A DNA stretch of 64,000 bases from Bdellovibrio sp. (GTDB taxonomy: Bacteria; Bdellovibrionota; Bdellovibrionia; Bdellovibrionales; Bdellovibrionaceae). Numbering within the stretch: position 1 is the first letter of the stretch; every line of letters starts with the position of its first letter. Under the pieces are notes generated by a model. It was not told the DNA's origin, did not search any database, and saw only the letters and a program-made list of their open reading frames with translations. The stretch is from positions 2,112,001 through 2,176,000 of the forward strand of contig JAKFCY010000002.1 of assembly GCA_036676395.1 (NCBI GenBank). Direction: 5' to 3'. Below are positions 31,658 through 54,100 of this stretch, piece by piece. Both the position numbers and the translations under genes were made by a program.

Positions 31658-32792
31658 TATTTTTCAAACTTCTGCAAATTTTATCTCTTTAGAAATGCAG
31701 GAGCTTTTAGACAGTCAAATCGTCGTCATGGCGAATTGGAAATGGCTGGCGCTGGCCGCATCTGTCTTGCTGGTTTTAATTATCAATAAACTTGTGCGAA
31801 TTCTTTTACACAAGGCAAAAAAAAGAATTCATCTTTCAGAAGAACGCACATTTTTTTCTTATTTCATTCAACAAAATATTGAGCGCGGCTTAAGTTGGAT
31901 TTTAGCAGCCCTTATCGGGATGGCACTGGTTGAAAATTTAGCCTTACCGGCAAACTTTGAAAAGTATTTGTTACTGCTTTTAAAAGTGACCCTGGGTCTT
32001 CATGTTCTGCGCTTAGCTTATTTTGCCGCCGACGCATCAGGATTACTAATCGATCATTTAGCCCACAAGCAACAATCGCAAATGGGTGATCAACTGGCTC
32101 CATTAGCAACCAAATCTTTAAAAGGCCTTGTGATCATTATCGGAACCCTGGTGATCTTGCAAAATTTCGGCGTCAACGTGACAGCTATCTTAGCCGGTCT
32201 TGGTTTAGGTGGCGTGGCCTTAGCGTTCGCAGCTCAAGACACCGTCGCGAATTTCTTTGGCACGATCACAATTTTATTAGATTCACCATTTCGTGTGGGC
32301 GACCACATTAAAATTATTGATGTCGAAGGCACCATTGAAGAAGTGGGTTTTAGATCTACCCGCATTCGTTCATTAACTAATTCAGTGATCACTTTACCAA
32401 ATTCTGTGGTGGCTAAAGAAAAAATCGATAACATCACTGAACGCCGGGGCATCTGCAGGTTTCGTCATATAGTGGGCTTCACCTATGCAGCTACACCAGA
32501 ACAAATCGAGCATTTCGTCGAACAACTTCGCTATTACTTAAAACAAGATCCCCGCGTGAACCAAGAACGCATAGTAATTCAATTTCATGAATTGGCCGAA
32601 AGCTCGCAAAATATTTTAATTCAGTTTCACTTCTTAGTGCAACCGCATGAAGCCGAGTCACAAATTCTACAGAAGTATTTATTAGATATCGTAAAACTAT
32701 CTCAAGCTTCAAAACTTGATTTCGCCTTCCCGACCAGAACTTTAATAATGGAATCTACGAGCGTAAAACTAAACAGCGCGCAAACTATCTAA
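31647..32792 (+). CDS. mscS: Small-conductance mechanosensitive channel
   Basis: GLGLGGVALAFAAQDTVANFF, PFRVGD and GFRSTRIR motifs. Confidence 0.92.
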   Translation: MENNIFQTSANFISLEMQELLDSQIVVMANWKWLALAASVLLVLIINKLVRILLHKAKKRIHLSEERTFFSYFIQQNIERGLSWILAALIGMALVENLALPANFEKYLLLLLKVTLGLHVLRLAYFAADASGLLIDHLAHKQQSQMGDQLAPLATKSLKGLVIIIGTLVILQNFGVNVTAILAGLGLGGVALAFAAQDTVANFFGTITILLDSPFRVGDHIKIIDVEGTIEEVGFRSTRIRSLTNSVITLPNSVVAKEKIDNITERRGICRFRHIVGFTYAATPEQIEHFVEQLRYYLKQDPRVNQERIVIQFHELAESSQNILIQFHFLVQPHEAESQILQKYLLDIVKLSQASKLDFAFPTRTLIMESTSVKLNSAQTI

Positions 32793-33356
32793 CCAGTTTC
32801 TAAAGCGCATAAACTGCGGGTCTGACTCTTCTGACATGACCTGCACGCGCTTTTTCTCTTTTTGGTCTTCAACTAATGAACACATCACTGAATAAACGTT
32901 ACCATCGCTGGTGTCGGTGATGCGAACGATAAAATATCCAGAAACCCAGGCTGGAATCAGATCATTAAAATGAATGCCACCTTCAGATAAATCGATTGTG
33001 GTGGTGTTAAAATTTTGATTCTGACCCAGAACAGTGACATTAAATTCTTTTTCAATACGGTCATGCAAACGTGGGTGTAATACTTTTTTAGTTTTTACGA
33101 CGAAATAATCAGTATCTGTGCTTTCAATCGCGGCATCTGCATTTAGGGCCGGATAACCTTCTTCAAATTTTCCCACAGGGGCATACAGTTCAGGAAATTG
33201 TTCACGTGAAACTTTATGCCATTCTTTGTCGTGCTGTTTGCAGACTTTCACAAGCTTTATTTCGTTACTTGAGAGCGTGTTAATCAACAACTGAACTTCG
33301 CGCTCAGCCAGTGAATAAAGTGTCCACCCTTTTAAAGAATTATGTAAAGCCCACAT
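32769..33356 (-). CDS. PilZ-domain c-di-GMP receptor
   Basis: RLHDR (RxxxR) and DLSEGG (D/NxSxxG) motifs are intact; GGGAG RBS before ATG at 33356. Confidence 0.8.
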   Translation of the reverse strand: MWALHNSLKGWTLYSLAEREVQLLINTLSSNEIKLVKVCKQHDKEWHKVSREQFPELYAPVGKFEEGYPALNADAAIESTDTDYFVVKTKKVLHPRLHDRIEKEFNVTVLGQNQNFNTTTIDLSEGGIHFNDLIPAWVSGYFIVRITDTSDGNVYSVMCSLVEDQKEKKRVQVMSEESDPQFMRFRNWLDSLRAV

Positions 33357-33378
33357 AGGTTGCTCCCTGTGAAAAGTA

Positions 33379-34614
33379 TTATTTTTTCTTTTTCTTAGCT
33401 GGTGCTGTCGGAAGCTTTGAAGCATCATAACCGACAGTTTCAGCTTTGATCTTTTCAGCTTCTAATTTCATTTTTTCAGCTTCAGCATTAGCTCTTTCGG
33501 TTTCAGATTTAACTTTGCTTTCTTCGGCCTGAGCTTTGAACTTTTCAACTGCCGCAGCTAAAGCTTCACGCTCTTGCTTGTTTTTCTCTGTGTCTTTTTT
33601 CATTTGTTCGATCTCAGCCTGGTTCTTTTTGATCTCAGCTTCTAACGAAGCTTGCGACTTTTTCAGCTGGTTCGACTCGGTGTTAAATTGTGCGCTTTCT
33701 TTTAGAAAAGTTGATTTAGTTTTTTCTAATTCAGCACGAGACTTTAAGTTTTGCTCTTTTAATTTATCTTCTTCTTTACGAACGCTTAAGAATTTTTCTT
33801 TTTCTTCGTTTAACTTCAATTGCGATTCTTTTTGTTCTGTTTCTATTTTTTTCACTTCTTCTTTTAAACGATCAACATTTGCCTGGGCCGTATCAATTAA
33901 CGATTTGTGTTTTGCTGCTTCAGCTTCGTTTTTCTTTTTTTCAGCTTCTGCACGTGCTTTTTCCTGAGTAAGCTTTGCTTCGTTCATTTTTAATTCAGCT
34001 TGCGCTTTTTGTGACTGCGCCTGGGCTTTAACTAAATTTTGCTGTAACGTTCTTTGTTCGTTCTGCTGTTCAGCCGTTTCTTTAATGGCTTTCGCTAATT
34101 CATCTTGTGATTTAGAGGTTTCTTTTTCAGTGTCTTTCCAGTTTTTTTCAGCATCACGGGCCGCTGTTTGGGCTGCTTTTGTTTTTTCTTTTGATTCAGC
34201 CGTTTGCTTTTTCAAAGCTTCAATTTTTTCATTAAACGATTTAGTCTTAGCTTCGAATTCAACTTTTTGTTTTTCGCTTTGCGCTTGCTGCTTTTCAGCC
34301 TCAGACATTTCAAGACGCATTTGCGCTAGTTCTTTTTCATATTGCGCTGTCATTTTTTTAGATTCAGCTTCGGCACCACGAGCTTTGTCTAAAGCTTTTT
34401 TTGCCTCATTTAAAACCTGATCATGCTTTTTCTTTTCTTCTTCTAAGCGCTTTTTAGCATCAGCTGCATTTATTTTTGCTTCAGCGGCATCACCGATCGC
34501 TTCTTCAGCCTGAATTTGCGTGTCAGTGGCATCTGCTGCTTGTACACTTTGGCTAACACCCTGAAATAAAAAAACAATTGAAACTAACAGAACAATTTTT
34601 TGCATCGAGAACAT
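33379..34614 (-). CDS. Exported long coiled-coil protein
   Basis: Signal peptide followed by ~350 aa of K/E/A/Q heptads; poly-Lys C-terminus. Confidence 0.75.
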   Translation of the reverse strand: MFSMQKIVLLVSIVFLFQGVSQSVQAADATDTQIQAEEAIGDAAEAKINAADAKKRLEEEKKKHDQVLNEAKKALDKARGAEAESKKMTAQYEKELAQMRLEMSEAEKQQAQSEKQKVEFEAKTKSFNEKIEALKKQTAESKEKTKAAQTAARDAEKNWKDTEKETSKSQDELAKAIKETAEQQNEQRTLQQNLVKAQAQSQKAQAELKMNEAKLTQEKARAEAEKKKNEAEAAKHKSLIDTAQANVDRLKEEVKKIETEQKESQLKLNEEKEKFLSVRKEEDKLKEQNLKSRAELEKTKSTFLKESAQFNTESNQLKKSQASLEAEIKKNQAEIEQMKKDTEKNKQEREALAAAVEKFKAQAEESKVKSETERANAEAEKMKLEAEKIKAETVGYDASKLPTAPAKKKKK

Positions 34615-48930: not shown

Positions 48931-49306
48931 CATTGTACGCTTGTTCGTAAAATTGCAACGAACGGGCGTCAGTTTTTTTCACTAATTCTTGGTAAACTTT
49001 TGTAATCTCATGCATCGATGCCCCTTGCGGCACACCCAACACATCATGGGCTTCCCAATCATGTCCGTTGTACATAAAAATCACCGAAAGCGATCTGCTG
49101 CTTACCTCGCGCGGTTCTGCTTGCTGAACTGCCAAAGTCTTTGGGCTTTCGGGCTCTAAAACTTGCGTTTTTTTATCGCCAGAATCTTTGGCGCGCATGT
49201 TCAACTTTGTCGGCTGTTTAGGCTTAGGACGCCCTAAAACAAAATACAGCACTAAAAGTACGCCGAATACTAAGTTTAAGAATAAAAGCAGTTGGCTATT
49301 GATCAC
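48896..49306 (-). CDS. Membrane-anchored J-like domain protein lacking HPD
   Basis: N-terminal TM; AHDVLGVPQGASMHEITKVYQELV...EQAYNAI resembles DnaJ helices. Confidence 0.6.
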   Translation of the reverse strand: MINSQLLLFLNLVFGVLLVLYFVLGRPKPKQPTKLNMRAKDSGDKKTQVLEPESPKTLAVQQAEPREVSSRSLSVIFMYNGHDWEAHDVLGVPQGASMHEITKVYQELVKKTDARSLQFYEQAYNAISIRHRKHRL

Positions 49307-49375
49307 TTTGTTATTATTAATTTACTTCTATTAGTTGTAAACGAGAATTCGGCAATGCCCGATACAAGGACTGTC

Positions 49376-50155
49376 ATGAACCCATTCGACCGCCAAGCTG
49401 CTATCCCCGGAGTTAAAAAAATCATCGTCGTTGCCTCAGGAAAAGGCGGCGTTGGTAAAAGCACCGTTTCAACAAACCTTGCCTTAGCTTTACGTAAATA
49501 CGGTTCTGTTGGTTTATTAGACGCCGACATCTACGGCCCATCGATCCCGCGCATGATGGGAGCCATCAACCAAAAACCCACAGTTTCTAACGGCACCGAA
49601 ATCAACCCGATCGAACGTTACGGCATTAAACTAATGAGCATTGGCTTCTTAGCAGAAGAAGGTGCAGCGATCGTTTGGCGTGGTCCGATGTTATTCAAAG
49701 CCATGGATCAATTCTTTCGCGATGTAAAATGGGGCGAGCTTGATTTCTTAGTGATCGATCTTCCACCTGGCACTGGTGATGTGCAGTTATCAGTGGTTCA
49801 AAAAATCCCGGTATCAGCGGCAGTGATCGTATCAACACCACAAAACGTGGCCTTAATCGACGCTAAAAAAGCGATCGACATGTTCGAACGCACTCAAGTT
49901 AAAATTTTAGGAATGGTTGAAAACATGTCTTACATGTTAAATCCAGTAAACGGCGAAAAAATGCAGCTATTTCCAAAAGGCGAAATGGATTCTTTCTTAG
50001 CAGCGAAAAAAATTCCAAAGCTTGTTGAAATGCCGTTTAACCCAAGCATTTCTTTAGGCTCAGAAGCCGGCATCCCGTTAATGGAAAGCTACTCAGATTC
50101 TTTAGAAGCAAAAACTTTTGCAGAACTTGCCGCTAAAGTTGTAGAGAGTATTTAA
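49376..50155 (+). CDS. mrp: Mrp/NBP35 Fe-S cluster carrier ATPase
   Basis: SGKGGVGKST, DADIYGPS, WRGPM, DLPPGTGD and ENMS motifs; AAGGA RBS before ATG at 49376. Confidence 0.93.
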   Translation: MNPFDRQAAIPGVKKIIVVASGKGGVGKSTVSTNLALALRKYGSVGLLDADIYGPSIPRMMGAINQKPTVSNGTEINPIERYGIKLMSIGFLAEEGAAIVWRGPMLFKAMDQFFRDVKWGELDFLVIDLPPGTGDVQLSVVQKIPVSAAVIVSTPQNVALIDAKKAIDMFERTQVKILGMVENMSYMLNPVNGEKMQLFPKGEMDSFLAAKKIPKLVEMPFNPSISLGSEAGIPLMESYSDSLEAKTFAELAAKVVESI

Positions 50156-50532: not shown

Positions 50533-52152
50533 TTAGTTGTGGTGAACGCGTTCTACGTACTCTGGGTAAGTCATATCGTAAGTCGTTAAATGATTCTTAT
50601 CGATTTCAAATACGCGCGTTGTGATTTCACGCAAGAAGAAACGATCATGCGATACCATCATCACTGTGCCCGGAAATTCTTTAATCGCCTTTAATAGCAC
50701 TTCACGAGATTTAATATCTAAGTGATTCGTTGGCTCATCCAGCACTAAGAAATTCACCGGCTCTGATAAAATACACGCTAAAATTACGCGAGACTTCTCA
50801 CCACCCGATAAAATCGAAATCTTTTTTTCTGCTTCTTCACCAGAAAACAAGAATGCTCCTAATAAACTCTTAATAGAACCAATCGTTGCATTCGGAACAC
50901 GAGATTCCATCTCTTGCATGATAGTGTTGTTCGGATTTAATAAATCTAAAGAGTTCTGCGAAAAATAGCCTACAGAAATAGAAGGCCCGACTGTGCATGT
51001 TCCTGCTGAAGCTTCAGTTTGCTTAGTGATGATTTTAAGTAAAGTCGATTTACCCGCACCATTCACACCGACTACGGCTACGCGGTCCATACGTTTAACT
51101 AACGCTGTCGCGTTGTTAAATACGTTTCTGTCACGGCCATCTTTTAAGTGATAAGTTTTGCCAAGTTTTTCAAACTTCACAACTTCATCACCTCCGCGTG
51201 GTGGCTCTGGCCAAACGAAATCCATCGCACGATCTTCTGGTGGAATTTCAATGCGATCAATCTTTTCTAATTTTTTAACACGGGATTGCACTTGCGCTGC
51301 ATGCGATGCACGCGCCGCAAAGCGCGCGATAAATTCTTCTTCTTTAGCTAACATATCGTCTTGGCGACGAGCTTGCGCGATTAATTGCTCTTTACGAATT
51401 TGACGTTCTTTATCATAGAAATCGTAATTACCACCGTACACAGTGATCGCTTTATTGGCGATTTCGATAGTTTTCGTCACAAGTCGATTCATAAAATCAC
51501 GATCATGCGAAGTCATTAAGACAGAGCCTTTAAAATCTTTAAGCCAAGCTTCAAGCCACACGATCGATTCAACATCTAAGTGATTCGTCGGCTCATCCAT
51601 TAATAAAACATCAGGCATTAATAATAAGATCTTAGCTAAGCTTGCACGCATTTTCCAACCGCCCGAGAACTGGCCGATATCCATTTGCATATCTTCTTTA
51701 GAAAAACCAAGACCACCTAAGATTGCAGAAGCACGCGGTTCTACATCGTAGCCACCCACAGCTTCAAACTGCTCTTGCAACACGCCGTATTTTTCAACGA
51801 CATCCATCATCTCATCTTCACCAAGATTTGGATCTTGTAAGCGCTCTTCGTAGTGCTTAATCATATCGACTACTTTATCTAAGCCTCCACTGGCTAACAC
51901 TTCAGCCAATACAGAACGGCCTTTCATGTTTTCGATACTTTGCGAGAAATAACCAATGCGAATTCTTTCAGGTTTAGAAATAGTGCCTTGATCAGGAGAC
52001 TCTTCGCCCATGATTAAACGAAAGATTGTCGTTTTACCCGCGCCATTAGAGCCGACCAGGCCGATTTTATCGCCAGGATTAATTTGAAATGACCCATTTG
52101 CGTATAAAATTTTAGTACCAACTTGTTTTGTAACGGCGTTAAAAGCGACCAT
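50533..52152 (-). CDS. ABC-F family ATPase (YheS/YdiF-like)
   Basis: GSNGAGKT/FSGGW/DEPTNHLD and GVNGAGKS/LSGGE/DEPTNHLD; AQVQSRVKKLEK linker. Confidence 0.92.
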   Translation of the reverse strand: MVAFNAVTKQVGTKILYANGSFQINPGDKIGLVGSNGAGKTTIFRLIMGEESPDQGTISKPERIRIGYFSQSIENMKGRSVLAEVLASGGLDKVVDMIKHYEERLQDPNLGEDEMMDVVEKYGVLQEQFEAVGGYDVEPRASAILGGLGFSKEDMQMDIGQFSGGWKMRASLAKILLLMPDVLLMDEPTNHLDVESIVWLEAWLKDFKGSVLMTSHDRDFMNRLVTKTIEIANKAITVYGGNYDFYDKERQIRKEQLIAQARRQDDMLAKEEEFIARFAARASHAAQVQSRVKKLEKIDRIEIPPEDRAMDFVWPEPPRGGDEVVKFEKLGKTYHLKDGRDRNVFNNATALVKRMDRVAVVGVNGAGKSTLLKIITKQTEASAGTCTVGPSISVGYFSQNSLDLLNPNNTIMQEMESRVPNATIGSIKSLLGAFLFSGEEAEKKISILSGGEKSRVILACILSEPVNFLVLDEPTNHLDIKSREVLLKAIKEFPGTVMMVSHDRFFLREITTRVFEIDKNHLTTYDMTYPEYVERVHHN

Positions 52153-52332
52153 ATTTATTCCTAGGATTTCAATTAATTAATTTGAGACGTTTTATATTCT
52201 TTTTTGAGAATAATCAAAAAAAATTGGAAATACAATTCGCACCCAGGCTATTCTTAATTCATACAAGATCAATTAATCTGAGTGGAGCACTCTAAGGAGA
52301 CGTTATATGCGCCGAATTCACGACCATAACGA

Positions 52333-52359
52333 TAAAGCACCAAAGTGACGTTGCGATAA
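52333..52359 (+). promoter_or_regulatory. Sigma28 (FliA)-type promoter
   Basis: TAAA-N15-TGCGATAA versus the consensus TAAA-N15-GCCGATAA. Confidence 0.6.
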
Positions 52360-52494
52360 ATAAAATATCTTACCGTTTTTTTATGACGGAAACCGGTTTA
52401 CATGGTGTAGGCAATGGTTTCGAGTTGATTTCTTTACTAACGTAATAGGAGGTCACTAGCGGTTTGAAAAGAATACGGGTAATTCCGTATCCTT

Positions 52495-52586
52495 CTTTTG
52501 CCTCAAGGCAAACCAGAGGGAACTCTGGGACGCAAAGCTATAGGGGCTCGCTGTTTATTCAGCAAAAGCCAGCCAGCTACCAAAGG
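52495..52586 (+). promoter_or_regulatory. c-di-GMP-I (GEMM) riboswitch aptamer
   Basis: GGCAAACC-AGAG-GGAA-CUCU-GG-GACGCAAAGC...GCCAGCCAGCUACC; GNRA-capped P2; P1 CUUUUG/CAAAGG. Confidence 0.9.
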
Positions 52587-52665
52587 ATATAAGAACCTGC
52601 GGTGAAAACTGCAATGGAAGGAAAAACAAATACATATTATTTCATGGATTGGTTTCATTCCCCTT

Positions 52666-52710
52666 AACTCTAAACTTATCAGTGGATGACAAAGTTTAGA
52701 GTTTTTTTTT
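52666..52710 (+). terminator. Intrinsic terminator closing the riboswitch RNA
   Basis: aactctaaactt...aagtttagagtt 12-bp stem ending in a T9 run. Confidence 0.88.
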
Positions 52711-52726
52711 GCTTAAAATAAACAAA

Positions 52727-54100
52727 TTAAATTCTAGGAATGCTTAATCTTACGCCAGCGCGTAGTTTCGACTTACGCTTAATATTGTTGGCTTTGCTCA
52801 ATTCAATAACAGATAGATTATATCTGTCTGCAATCGAGGCCAATGAATCGCCTCTTTTAACCACATAAAATTTGCTCGATGTGACGCTTTTTGAAGACGT
52901 TTTTTTCTTTTCTTTTGTCGATTTTCTTTCGATCAATGGCGTGCGGTCCGGAACGATTATTTTTTGCCCGACACGGATAGTTTTCTTACGCGAAAAATCA
53001 TTTAATTCGCGTAAGTACGCCACTGTTGTTCTGTACTTACGGGCAATCGCTCCTAAGTTGTCACCACGGCGAACTTTGTAGTGCTGAGTTTCAACCTGGT
53101 CAGGCACGAAATCTACAAGGCTTGCGACCGAGTTTTGCGCCGCTAAGGTAGCTACTTCCATTGTGCCTGCAGGAATACGTAAACTTAAAGTGTTGTCAGC
53201 TAAATCAAGAGGCGCTATTTCGCCTTTGAATTTTGGATTTAAATCTTTAAAGTCTTCGTAATTGAAATTCATTTTTTCGGCCATGATACGAAGATTGACT
53301 GGCTCTTTTAATGTAACGTGATCAAATTCAATAGGTGTCATGTAATCGATGCCTTCAAATCCGTATTTATCCGGATTTTTTGCAATCAATTTTGCCGCGA
53401 TATATTTTGGAACGTAATTATCAGTCTCTGCAGGCAAGGCTTTACGGTTTTTTGAAAGCTCCCAAAAATCTTTTGTTTTGTATTTTCTAACGGCTTTGAT
53501 CACACGGCCTTCACCCACATTGTAGGCCGCCATTGATAAATACCAAGAATTAAAAATGCCGTATAAGTCTCTGAAATACTCGGCGGCCGCTTGGGTGGCT
53601 AAAACTGGATCGCGACGCTCATCAACCATTTTATTAATATCTAATTTATAACGTTTTCCTGTACCGCGAATAAATTGCCAGTAACCCACAGCCGATGCAT
53701 GTGATCTTGCTGAAGAGCTAAAACCTGATTCGATTAAAGCGATGTAGAATAAATCTTCTGGTAATTTATTATCGCGTAAAACTTTTTTCATTAACGCTTC
53801 ATAACGCGTAGAACGGGCTAAATAACGCTCCATGTGCGGACGACCGCGGCCTTGAAAGTATTTGATCCACATTTCAACTTTTTCATTAATTTCTGTGGGG
53901 ATGGTCTCAAGCTCTTGGTTTTCAGAAATTTTGGAGTTAGTCGCTTTCGCGCTTTCTTTTTCGCTTTCAGAGACGCGAAATTTTTCTAGGTCGCCTTCTT
54001 TATTATACTCAGTTGTCGGTCCTGTAGATTTAGAATTCGTTACACAACCAAATGAAACACATAATAAAGACATCAATAATAACCTAGATGTTAGTCGCAC
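52727..54100 (-). CDS. mltD: MltD-type lytic transglycosylase lipoprotein with two LysM domains
   Basis: Lipobox SFGC; LIESGF, AVGYWQF, AAYNVGEG and ETDNYVPK motifs; YKVRRGDNL and YVVKRGDSL LysM repeats. Confidence 0.9.
   Translation of the reverse strand: MRLTSRLLLMSLLCVSFGCVTNSKSTGPTTEYNKEGDLEKFRVSESEKESAKATNSKISENQELETIPTEINEKVEMWIKYFQGRGRPHMERYLARSTRYEALMKKVLRDNKLPEDLFYIALIESGFSSSARSHASAVGYWQFIRGTGKRYKLDINKMVDERRDPVLATQAAAEYFRDLYGIFNSWYLSMAAYNVGEGRVIKAVRKYKTKDFWELSKNRKALPAETDNYVPKYIAAKLIAKNPDKYGFEGIDYMTPIEFDHVTLKEPVNLRIMAEKMNFNYEDFKDLNPKFKGEIAPLDLADNTLSLRIPAGTMEVATLAAQNSVASLVDFVPDQVETQHYKVRRGDNLGAIARKYRTTVAYLRELNDFSRKKTIRVGQKIIVPDRTPLIERKSTKEKKKTSSKSVTSSKFYVVKRGDSLASIADRYNLSVIELSKANNIKRKSKLRAGVRLSIPRI

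Follow-up and report, generated by a model that had tools for sequence, protein, structure and literature searches.

A predicted merRNA ortholog of Bdellovibrio sp. with a c-di-GMP-I aptamer between two conserved short reading frames

By sequence comparison, an RNA locus in the window (the whole 64-kb stretch of Bdellovibrio DNA that was analysed) is an ortholog of merRNA, which across the Bdellovibrionales is single-copy in the genome and lies next to apbC and mltD. The comparison establishes this orthology together with two conserved short reading frames, sORF1 upstream and sORF2 downstream of a c-di-GMP-I aptamer, the helices that close the aptamer, and a terminator (Table 1). Because it has a conserved 13-codon gene and a second short frame, the RNA is likely to be translated, and would be a signal-gated mini-message and more than a sponge. 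The reading that we favor, and hold to be about evenly poised between right and wrong, is that of a likely translated, dual-function RNA of ~450 nt in which c-di-GMP would shut the second ribosome site, with buffering of c-di-GMP in parallel. Order-wide conservation, coding content and closing helices of merRNA are absent from the literature that was searched, in which this kind of RNA is already known; in the same literature, mainly papers readable without a subscription, we found no report of ORFs in merRNA or APsRNA5.

Table 1. Positions in the window of the RNA locus, its elements and its neighbours.
Feature	Position	Strand	Basis or remark
apbC/mrp-like gene	49292..50155	+	synteny marker upstream of RNA locus
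ABC-F family gene	50533..52152	-	divergent neighbour, this genus alone
Promoter-like element TGGAAA-N18-TATTCT, sigma70-like -10	52225..52254	+	conserved in genus; predicted start near 52261
Predicted merRNA-type transcript, ~450 nt	52261..52710	+	5' end between 52261 and 52285
Shine-Dalgarno-like TAAGGAG of sORF1	52293..52299	+	7 nt before ATG
sORF1, 13 codons, MRRIHDHNDKAPK-stop	52307..52348	+	conserved frame and ribosome-binding site
Sigma28-like site of the earlier note, rejected	52333..52359	+	overlaps sORF1 codons
AGGAGG, conserved, no consistent start codon	52447..52452	+	nearly invariant in alignment A1
Pyrimidine tract TCCTTCTTTTG	52490..52500	+	5' strand of helix P0 and of aptamer-closing extension
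c-di-GMP-I (GEMM-I) aptamer, G at position 20	52497..52584	+	RF01051 match
Small hairpin with GGTG ribosome-site-like word of sORF2	52598..52613	+	folds; conserved in A1
sORF2, MEGKTNTYYFMDWFHSP-stop	52614..52667	+	codons 2-3 = 3' strand of P0
Intrinsic terminator	52666..52710	+	arms, T run, fold
mltD-like lytic transglycosylase gene	52727..54100	-	convergent neighbour

The published merRNA is 445 nt long, 5006-fold enriched in attack phase and expressed above tmRNA; in the portion of the paper available to us it is described as non-coding and as not conserved outside Bdellovibrio, its riboswitch is reported without a conserved ORF downstream, and its proposed role in c-di-GMP storage (a sponge) is called unvalidated by the authors themselves (PMC3627812). 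That the window locus is its counterpart, as the earlier note had supposed, is supported by synteny (apbC/mltD), single copy, length and identity. Locus L202, whose sequence looks like the merRNA text of the available part of Figure S1 of PMC3627812, was aligned with positions 52261–52710 of the window; 289 of 497 columns are identical (58%), and the score is 321 against a maximum of 175 among 50 shuffles. The aptamer is present in 46 of 61 relatives. At the level of the order 99 of 151 genomes carry it, 98 of them as a single copy, and in the family all 42 do; the comparative set used here holds 114 order-level aptamer loci.

Aptamer matches extend into the wider phylum, where 47 of 151 genomes have one, always single. 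Among 26 loci outside the order we found neither apbC nor mltD nearby and no DPPP-type ORF, and 18 of the 26 form a compact multi-helix RNA fold with the same closing extension. Compact ORF-less c-di-GMP-I RNAs whose outer helix is GAAGAGG/CCTCTTC and whose loops are C-rich are seen at L343–L356, L358, L362 and L413–L416. These outside-order RNAs may be ordinary leaders, because many of them precede a sense gene whose N-terminus we take to be that of QueE.

We compared the surroundings of the RNA in flanks of 1.5–2.5 kb. The apbC gene is upstream at 19 of 22 sister-genus loci, 11 of 13 in family f6 and 7 of 11 in f12, and mltD is downstream at 29 of 32 genus loci; in the sister genus mltD lies within the fetched flank at just 7 of 22 loci, and in f2 it is upstream at 7 of 18. 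By its named relatives, the MltD protein assigns the organism to the Pseudobdellovibrio/Bdellovibrio group. The ABC-F neighbour occurs at 22 of 32 genus loci and at none in other groups, and at these 22 loci the ABC-F gene and the RNA locus have a common divergent promoter region; the ABC-F family includes ribosome-stall rescue factors. Both flanking genes are on the minus strand, as the earlier note had said, and its statement that the RNA lacks a gene to control is true of long ORFs but fails for short ones, since the RNA contains two short conserved frames. No long sense gene follows the riboswitch in the window, and sORF2 is the candidate target; a sense ORF is present 3' of the aptamer unit at 32 of 114 loci, and these ORFs belong to mixed families and lie beyond the terminator. 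Elsewhere in the window are an ORF with ADP-ribosyltransferase Pfam matches PF03496 and PF01129 (41602–42318, minus strand) and a stand-alone protein with a cyclic-nucleotide-binding domain (PF00027; 45791–46165, plus strand).

The GEMM aptamer of the earlier note is borne out by a full-length RF01051 match (model positions 1–87; 67.6 bits, E 4.4e-11, with the gathering score at 35), which is the sole Rfam match within the window and the sole copy in the genome; a search for a second Rfam family gave none, even at a loose threshold. The base equivalent to G20, which had been read as G, is G at this locus and at all 114 order-level loci, with position 20 placed by the model alignment and by what we take to be the Vc2 numbering. 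The published work, as far as available, ties A at position 20 to cGAMP selectivity and reports that A20G turns a cGAMP aptamer into a c-di-GMP one (PMC6456294). A GEMM-Ib cGAMP riboswitch was ruled out, there being no A at position 20, and the G20 aptamer predicts c-di-GMP as the likely ligand, in agreement with the earlier note. A generic aptamer pattern scan gave mostly Bacillota matches and was left out of the analysis. At one locus (L246, genome G127) two aptamer units lie ~850 nt apart, each then followed by a ribosome site and MLNPKPNTRPIPP-stop. The note had also listed an intact PilZ receptor: the protein is present (32769–33428, minus strand), but at 20.2 bits it falls below the Pfam cut-off of 22.5. 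It has RxxxR and DxSxxG-like words, which we presume to be the consensus words of c-di-GMP-binding PilZ domains, it lies 19 kb from the RNA locus, and 12 stronger PilZ matches occur elsewhere in the genome.

The RNA had been assigned a sigma28 promoter, a start at 52366 and a length of 345 nt. The letters of the site, TAAA-N15-TGCGATAA, are present, but their occurrence here is no more than chance would give (654 such sites in the genome, 0.096 per kb of strand), and a sigma28 (FliA) promoter was rejected: counted as kept when TAAA and at least 6/8 in the second box are present, the site is kept at just 7 of 30 genus and 0 of 22 sister-genus loci, its TAAA is part of the Asp-Lys codons of sORF1, and RNA-library contigs extend upstream of it. 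In the available part of the table of PMC3627812, merRNA carries no FliA flag. A pattern with a sigma70-like -10, TGGAAA-N16-19-TA(T/A)TCT, lies upstream of the RNA at 31 of 32 genus loci, with TTGAAA-N18-TATCCT at the equivalent place in the sister genus, and we infer that the element at 52225–52254 acts as the promoter; the published merRNA 5' end is ~10 nt further downstream than its geometry predicts. Promoter-to-terminator length has a median of 440 nt at 30 genus loci and 450 nt at 20 sister-genus loci.

Contigs of RNA libraries, which cannot prove transcript ends or levels, came from seven soil studies, with 8 of the 13 available runs covered. They cover 52285–52684 and all lie within 52285–52710 save two low-depth pieces in flanking genes; the deep ones are almost wholly confined to the unit, with phase and level unreadable from them. 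In six runs they begin at 52285–52318: two studies have pieces that start at 52285, in one case with adapter attached, and two have pieces that start at 52299 and continue into a longer upstream form; the other starts are at 52313 and 52318. These starts are weak hints that disagree with a start at 52366, and with it with the 345-nt length. All six adapter loose ends point in the same direction, as would be expected of a plus-strand RNA provided that the libraries are stranded. In a run that carries a flag for probable DNA, a contig of a relative stops at 52710 and has no loose end. Contigs of two studies stop at 52585, the 3' edge of the aptamer, with adapter attached, which hints at a trimmed form, beyond proof by contigs. 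Thin cover behind 52585 in several runs, and the lack of cover over most flanking genes, were not counted as evidence. The strong terminator of the earlier note was found as described, with arms at 52666–52677 and 52692–52703 and nine T at 52702–52710, and the unit is self-contained, closed by this terminator; by a crude count at least 93 of the 114 loci have one.

Ahead of the aptamer, the TAAGGAG of sORF1 forms an anti-SD duplex of -9.0 kcal, and counterparts of sORF1 are present at 82 of 114 aptamer loci, by a motif set after inspection of the data. These comprise 30 of 32 genus, 22 of 22 sister-genus and 6 of 10 other f1 loci, together with f12 (11/11), f6 (10/13), f3 (2/2) and f4 (1/2); none was found in f2 (0/18), f5 (0/3) or f13 (0/1), and sORF1 is missing from 32 of the 114 overall. 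The peptide ends in D-x-x-P-K/E-stop in the family and in DPPP[K/E]-stop in distant families, and residues other than Pro are conserved too (an R/K-rich start, an invariant Asp, and W/R-x-L in distant families). Changes among the 26 distinct genus sequences are mostly silent (AGA/CGA, CAT/CAC, AAC/AAT, GAT/GAC and all four Pro codons). RNA-level constraint overlaps this frame, since G is almost always the third base of the last Lys/Glu codon. To avoid circularity, the frame test picked the best ribosome site and start codon regardless of frame: this pick is in frame at 52 of 52 family anchors, at 21 of 21 strong-site anchors of other families and at 5 of 5 aptamer-less loci, at distances of 12–33 nt; six further anchors have no strong site. 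The published merRNA text, in the part of PMC3627812 available, carries sORF1 as well, ending in DDELK-stop. The claim that the RNA is orphan and non-coding is thus not supported, given a conserved sORF1 upstream and a frame-conserved sORF2 downstream of the aptamer (the earlier note had named cis-encoded peptides beforehand as counting against its reading), and the non-coding class was rejected on the same conserved reading frames.

Some lineages carry the leader in other arrangements. Five genomes without an aptamer match retain the ribosome site and sORF1, four of them with a terminator-like end; aptamer-less loci with a ribosome site and a DPPP[K/E] ORF are L325, L328, L334, L389 and L318, mostly beside apbC. 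Among 48 aptamer-negative genomes, sORF1 was found within 1.5 kb of apbC in 1, and in 0 on the opposite strand; three earlier finds lie outside this set. A class-wide DPPP[K/E] pattern gave many chance matches, which were kept only if a ribosome site and start were present. In f3 (L337, L338) three tandem Pro-rich units (DPPPE-stop, DPPPE-stop and FPPPI-stop) lie upstream of the aptamer, the first without a clear start. DPPP[K/E] is the ending in f3, f6 and f12, and much of f1 has a single Pro or none. The genome encodes EF-P, and according to the part of PMC4176338 available, PPP after D ranks among the strong EF-P-dependent stalls of E. coli. Stalling is doubtful in the family of the window, because DKAPK, the window ending with its one Pro, and DDELK, the published ending with none, have no Pro-Pro.

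On the other side of the aptamer, the pyrimidine tract (52490–52500) can pair with 52581–52586 to form the closing extension (paired in 99.6% of cells) and with 52618–52622, codons 2–3 of sORF2, to form P0 (92.6% of cells). One P0 pair varies as C-G 26, A-U 8, U-G 2, U-A 1 and other 1 (n=38), and the compensatory changes of P0 rest on that one pair, among related sequences. When partners were swapped, own P0 partners beat swapped ones in the genus (0/2000) and were not clearly better in f2, f6 or the sister genus. The AGGAGG at 52447–52452 showed no partner-specific pairing in this test, and is a possible alternative partner of the tract. Folding programs produced neither P0 nor a two-state switch, and a constraint changed nothing in the window RNA. 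In most loci of f2, f4 and f5 the 3' strand of P0 is a ribosome site followed by ATG; f3, f6 and f12 keep P0, with the ATG behind it mostly absent. Between the sORF2 ATG and FHSP the family has 39 distinct segments, of which 35 (7 of 10 distinct lengths) preserve the frame and 4 are frameshifted; a control spacer preserves it in 17 of 56. There is no internal stop in these segments and the stop codon is TAA, TAG or TGA; some sister-genus copies have no stop, and the peptides are unlike one another between families. RNA-level constraint also acts on sORF2, since its last six codons hardly vary at silent sites.

In the mechanism that we propose, ribosomes would load on the conserved 13-codon leader, and c-di-GMP, predicted to bind the aptamer, would stabilise the closing helices; the locked helix would then hide the start or ribosome site of sORF2, such that the ligand-bound RNA has its second frame off. 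The leader, with a Pro-rich end in most families, may delay ribosomes, leaving the RNA loaded and stable. At an abundance like that of merRNA the same RNA could buffer c-di-GMP, and its turnover at prey entry would free the buffered ligand. The modules are separable and no single cis-switch fits all loci, because lineages keep the leader only, the aptamer and downstream frame only, or the leader and aptamer only; buffering is therefore retained as a parallel role. Protection against a 5' exonuclease is unsupported, because no RNase J was found (no TIGR00649 match in the 99% complete genome).

An alternative explanation is that a two-gene micro-mRNA is controlled in cis by an ordinary translational riboswitch, with the peptides as effectors and with buffering and stalling irrelevant. 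This would account for the frame conservation of both ORFs, for sORF1 residues conserved beyond Pro, for sORF1 in standalone and tandem units, and for a P0 that covers the sORF2 start or ribosome site. We nevertheless consider it unlikely, if still a serious contender: most f3, f6 and f12 loci have no downstream ATG despite P0, the sORF2 peptides differ between families, and expression above tmRNA (PMC3627812, in the part available) is odd for a peptide regulator. We regard as quite improbable a trans-acting sRNA or CsrA decoy, in which the 3' C-rich stretch (UUCAUUCCCCU) is a pairing seed or protein site gated by the aptamer. The invariance of TTTCATTCCCCT at silent sites and the C-rich loops that distant homologs have in their terminators and hairpins are in keeping with it, as are an ANGGA frequency ~1.8-fold over shuffles in the family and the presence of CsrA in 144 of 151 genomes; but GGA shows no enrichment (the window RNA has 7 where 6.0 are expected, and 1 of 31 genus loci reaches significance), and a seed leaves sORF1 unexplained. 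A Csr/Rsm decoy was itself rejected, GGA being near background and CsrA too widespread to correlate.

The earlier note's own reading, a purely non-coding, sigma28-driven c-di-GMP sponge of 345 nt, now appears very improbable, in view of the unconserved promoter, contigs that start at 52285–52318 in six runs, the conserved ORFs and the missing FliA flag of merRNA in the available part of PMC3627812. It does draw on a single-copy G20 aptamer with its own terminator and no long sense gene, on relatives in other classes of the phylum that are structured and have no ORF, on the presence of FliA in the genome and on the sponge proposed in that paper. Antisense control of mltD, the convergent neighbour at 29 of 32 genus loci, is extremely improbable, as the terminator stops short of the mltD stop codon by 16 nt; outside the genus, no more than 7 of 22 sister-genus loci have mltD in the fetched flank, and at 7 of 18 f2 loci it lies upstream.

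One other RNA of the attack phase offers a parallel. APsRNA5, second in abundance in the available table of PMC3627812, has a ribosome site and a 29-codon ORF ending in ETGPP-stop. APsRNA5-like patterns, which select for Pro-Pro by design, gave 54 loci in 81 family genomes, 22 of them with a ribosome site, a start and a Pro-type end. An APsRNA5-like unit, at G000:C3:591508-591579 (minus strand) in the genome of the window and at loci L435–L478, has a strong ribosome site, a ~23–30-codon ORF and a terminator-like hairpin. Such ORFs end in GTAPPQ-stop or ETGPP-stop. A frame-blind genome scan gave 54 intergenic strong-site short ORFs, 4 with Pro-type ends, sORF1 and a 23-codon GTAPPQ-stop ORF among them. 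A further short ORF, MVKQQDITKAEVSAP, has a very strong ribosome site (G000:C2:357921-357968, plus strand; L424) and resembles, by eye, a frame of APsRNA2 in the published text available. APsRNA1 (available part of Figure S1 of PMC3627812) has ATGGAAGG words and a 3' TCCCCTT in common with the 3' part of merRNA. A wider and improbable speculation is that hunting Bdellovibrio park ribosomes on a few super-abundant Pro-stall micro-mRNAs (the merRNA leader, APsRNA5), with merRNA joining the ribosome and c-di-GMP stores and its turnover at prey entry freeing both.

The role of merRNA is still a proposal in the literature searched, and the RNA is no minor one: in attack phase it draws about as many reads as all protein-coding genes, and the field uses its promoter as the standard strong one. 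If the RNA is translated, the reason for calling merRNA non-coding falls, and single-codon and single-pair mutants would separate the peptide, ribosome loading and ligand binding. The conserved Pro-Pro-ending ORF of APsRNA5 suggests an overlooked class of micro-mRNA in predatory bacteria.

The closest known system is merRNA of Bdellovibrio bacteriovorus (Karunker et al. 2013, PMC3627812), which, in the part of that paper available, shares with the window RNA a single c-di-GMP-I aptamer, apbC/mltD surroundings, a length of ~445–450 nt and the order of elements. The RNA described here differs from the published account in being order-wide and in having two conserved short frames, both also present in the published sequence, and in the genus of the window an ABC-F gene is inserted upstream. 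It resembles RF01051 riboswitches in its full-length match above the gathering score and in G20, but has no long downstream gene, and has two extra conserved closing helices and a short upstream ORF. EutX and Rli55, also standalone RNAs with a riboswitch, differ in that they reportedly act by a premature-termination switch and protein sequestration. Leader and arrest peptides (TnaC, PepNL and EF-P-dependent PPP stalls; PMC11890864 and PMC4176338, in the parts available) likewise have a strong ribosome site, 9–16 codons and a conserved C-terminal motif next to the stop, as in the DPPP of distant sORF1 families; in contrast, sORF1 has no regulated long gene behind it, the window peptide has no Pro-Pro, and stalling here is putative. 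The dual-function RNAs SR1 and SR7 of B. subtilis, as the accessible sources describe them, similarly unite a coding part and an RNA function in one short transcript, but their RNA function is base pairing, whereas here it would be that of a second-messenger aptamer.
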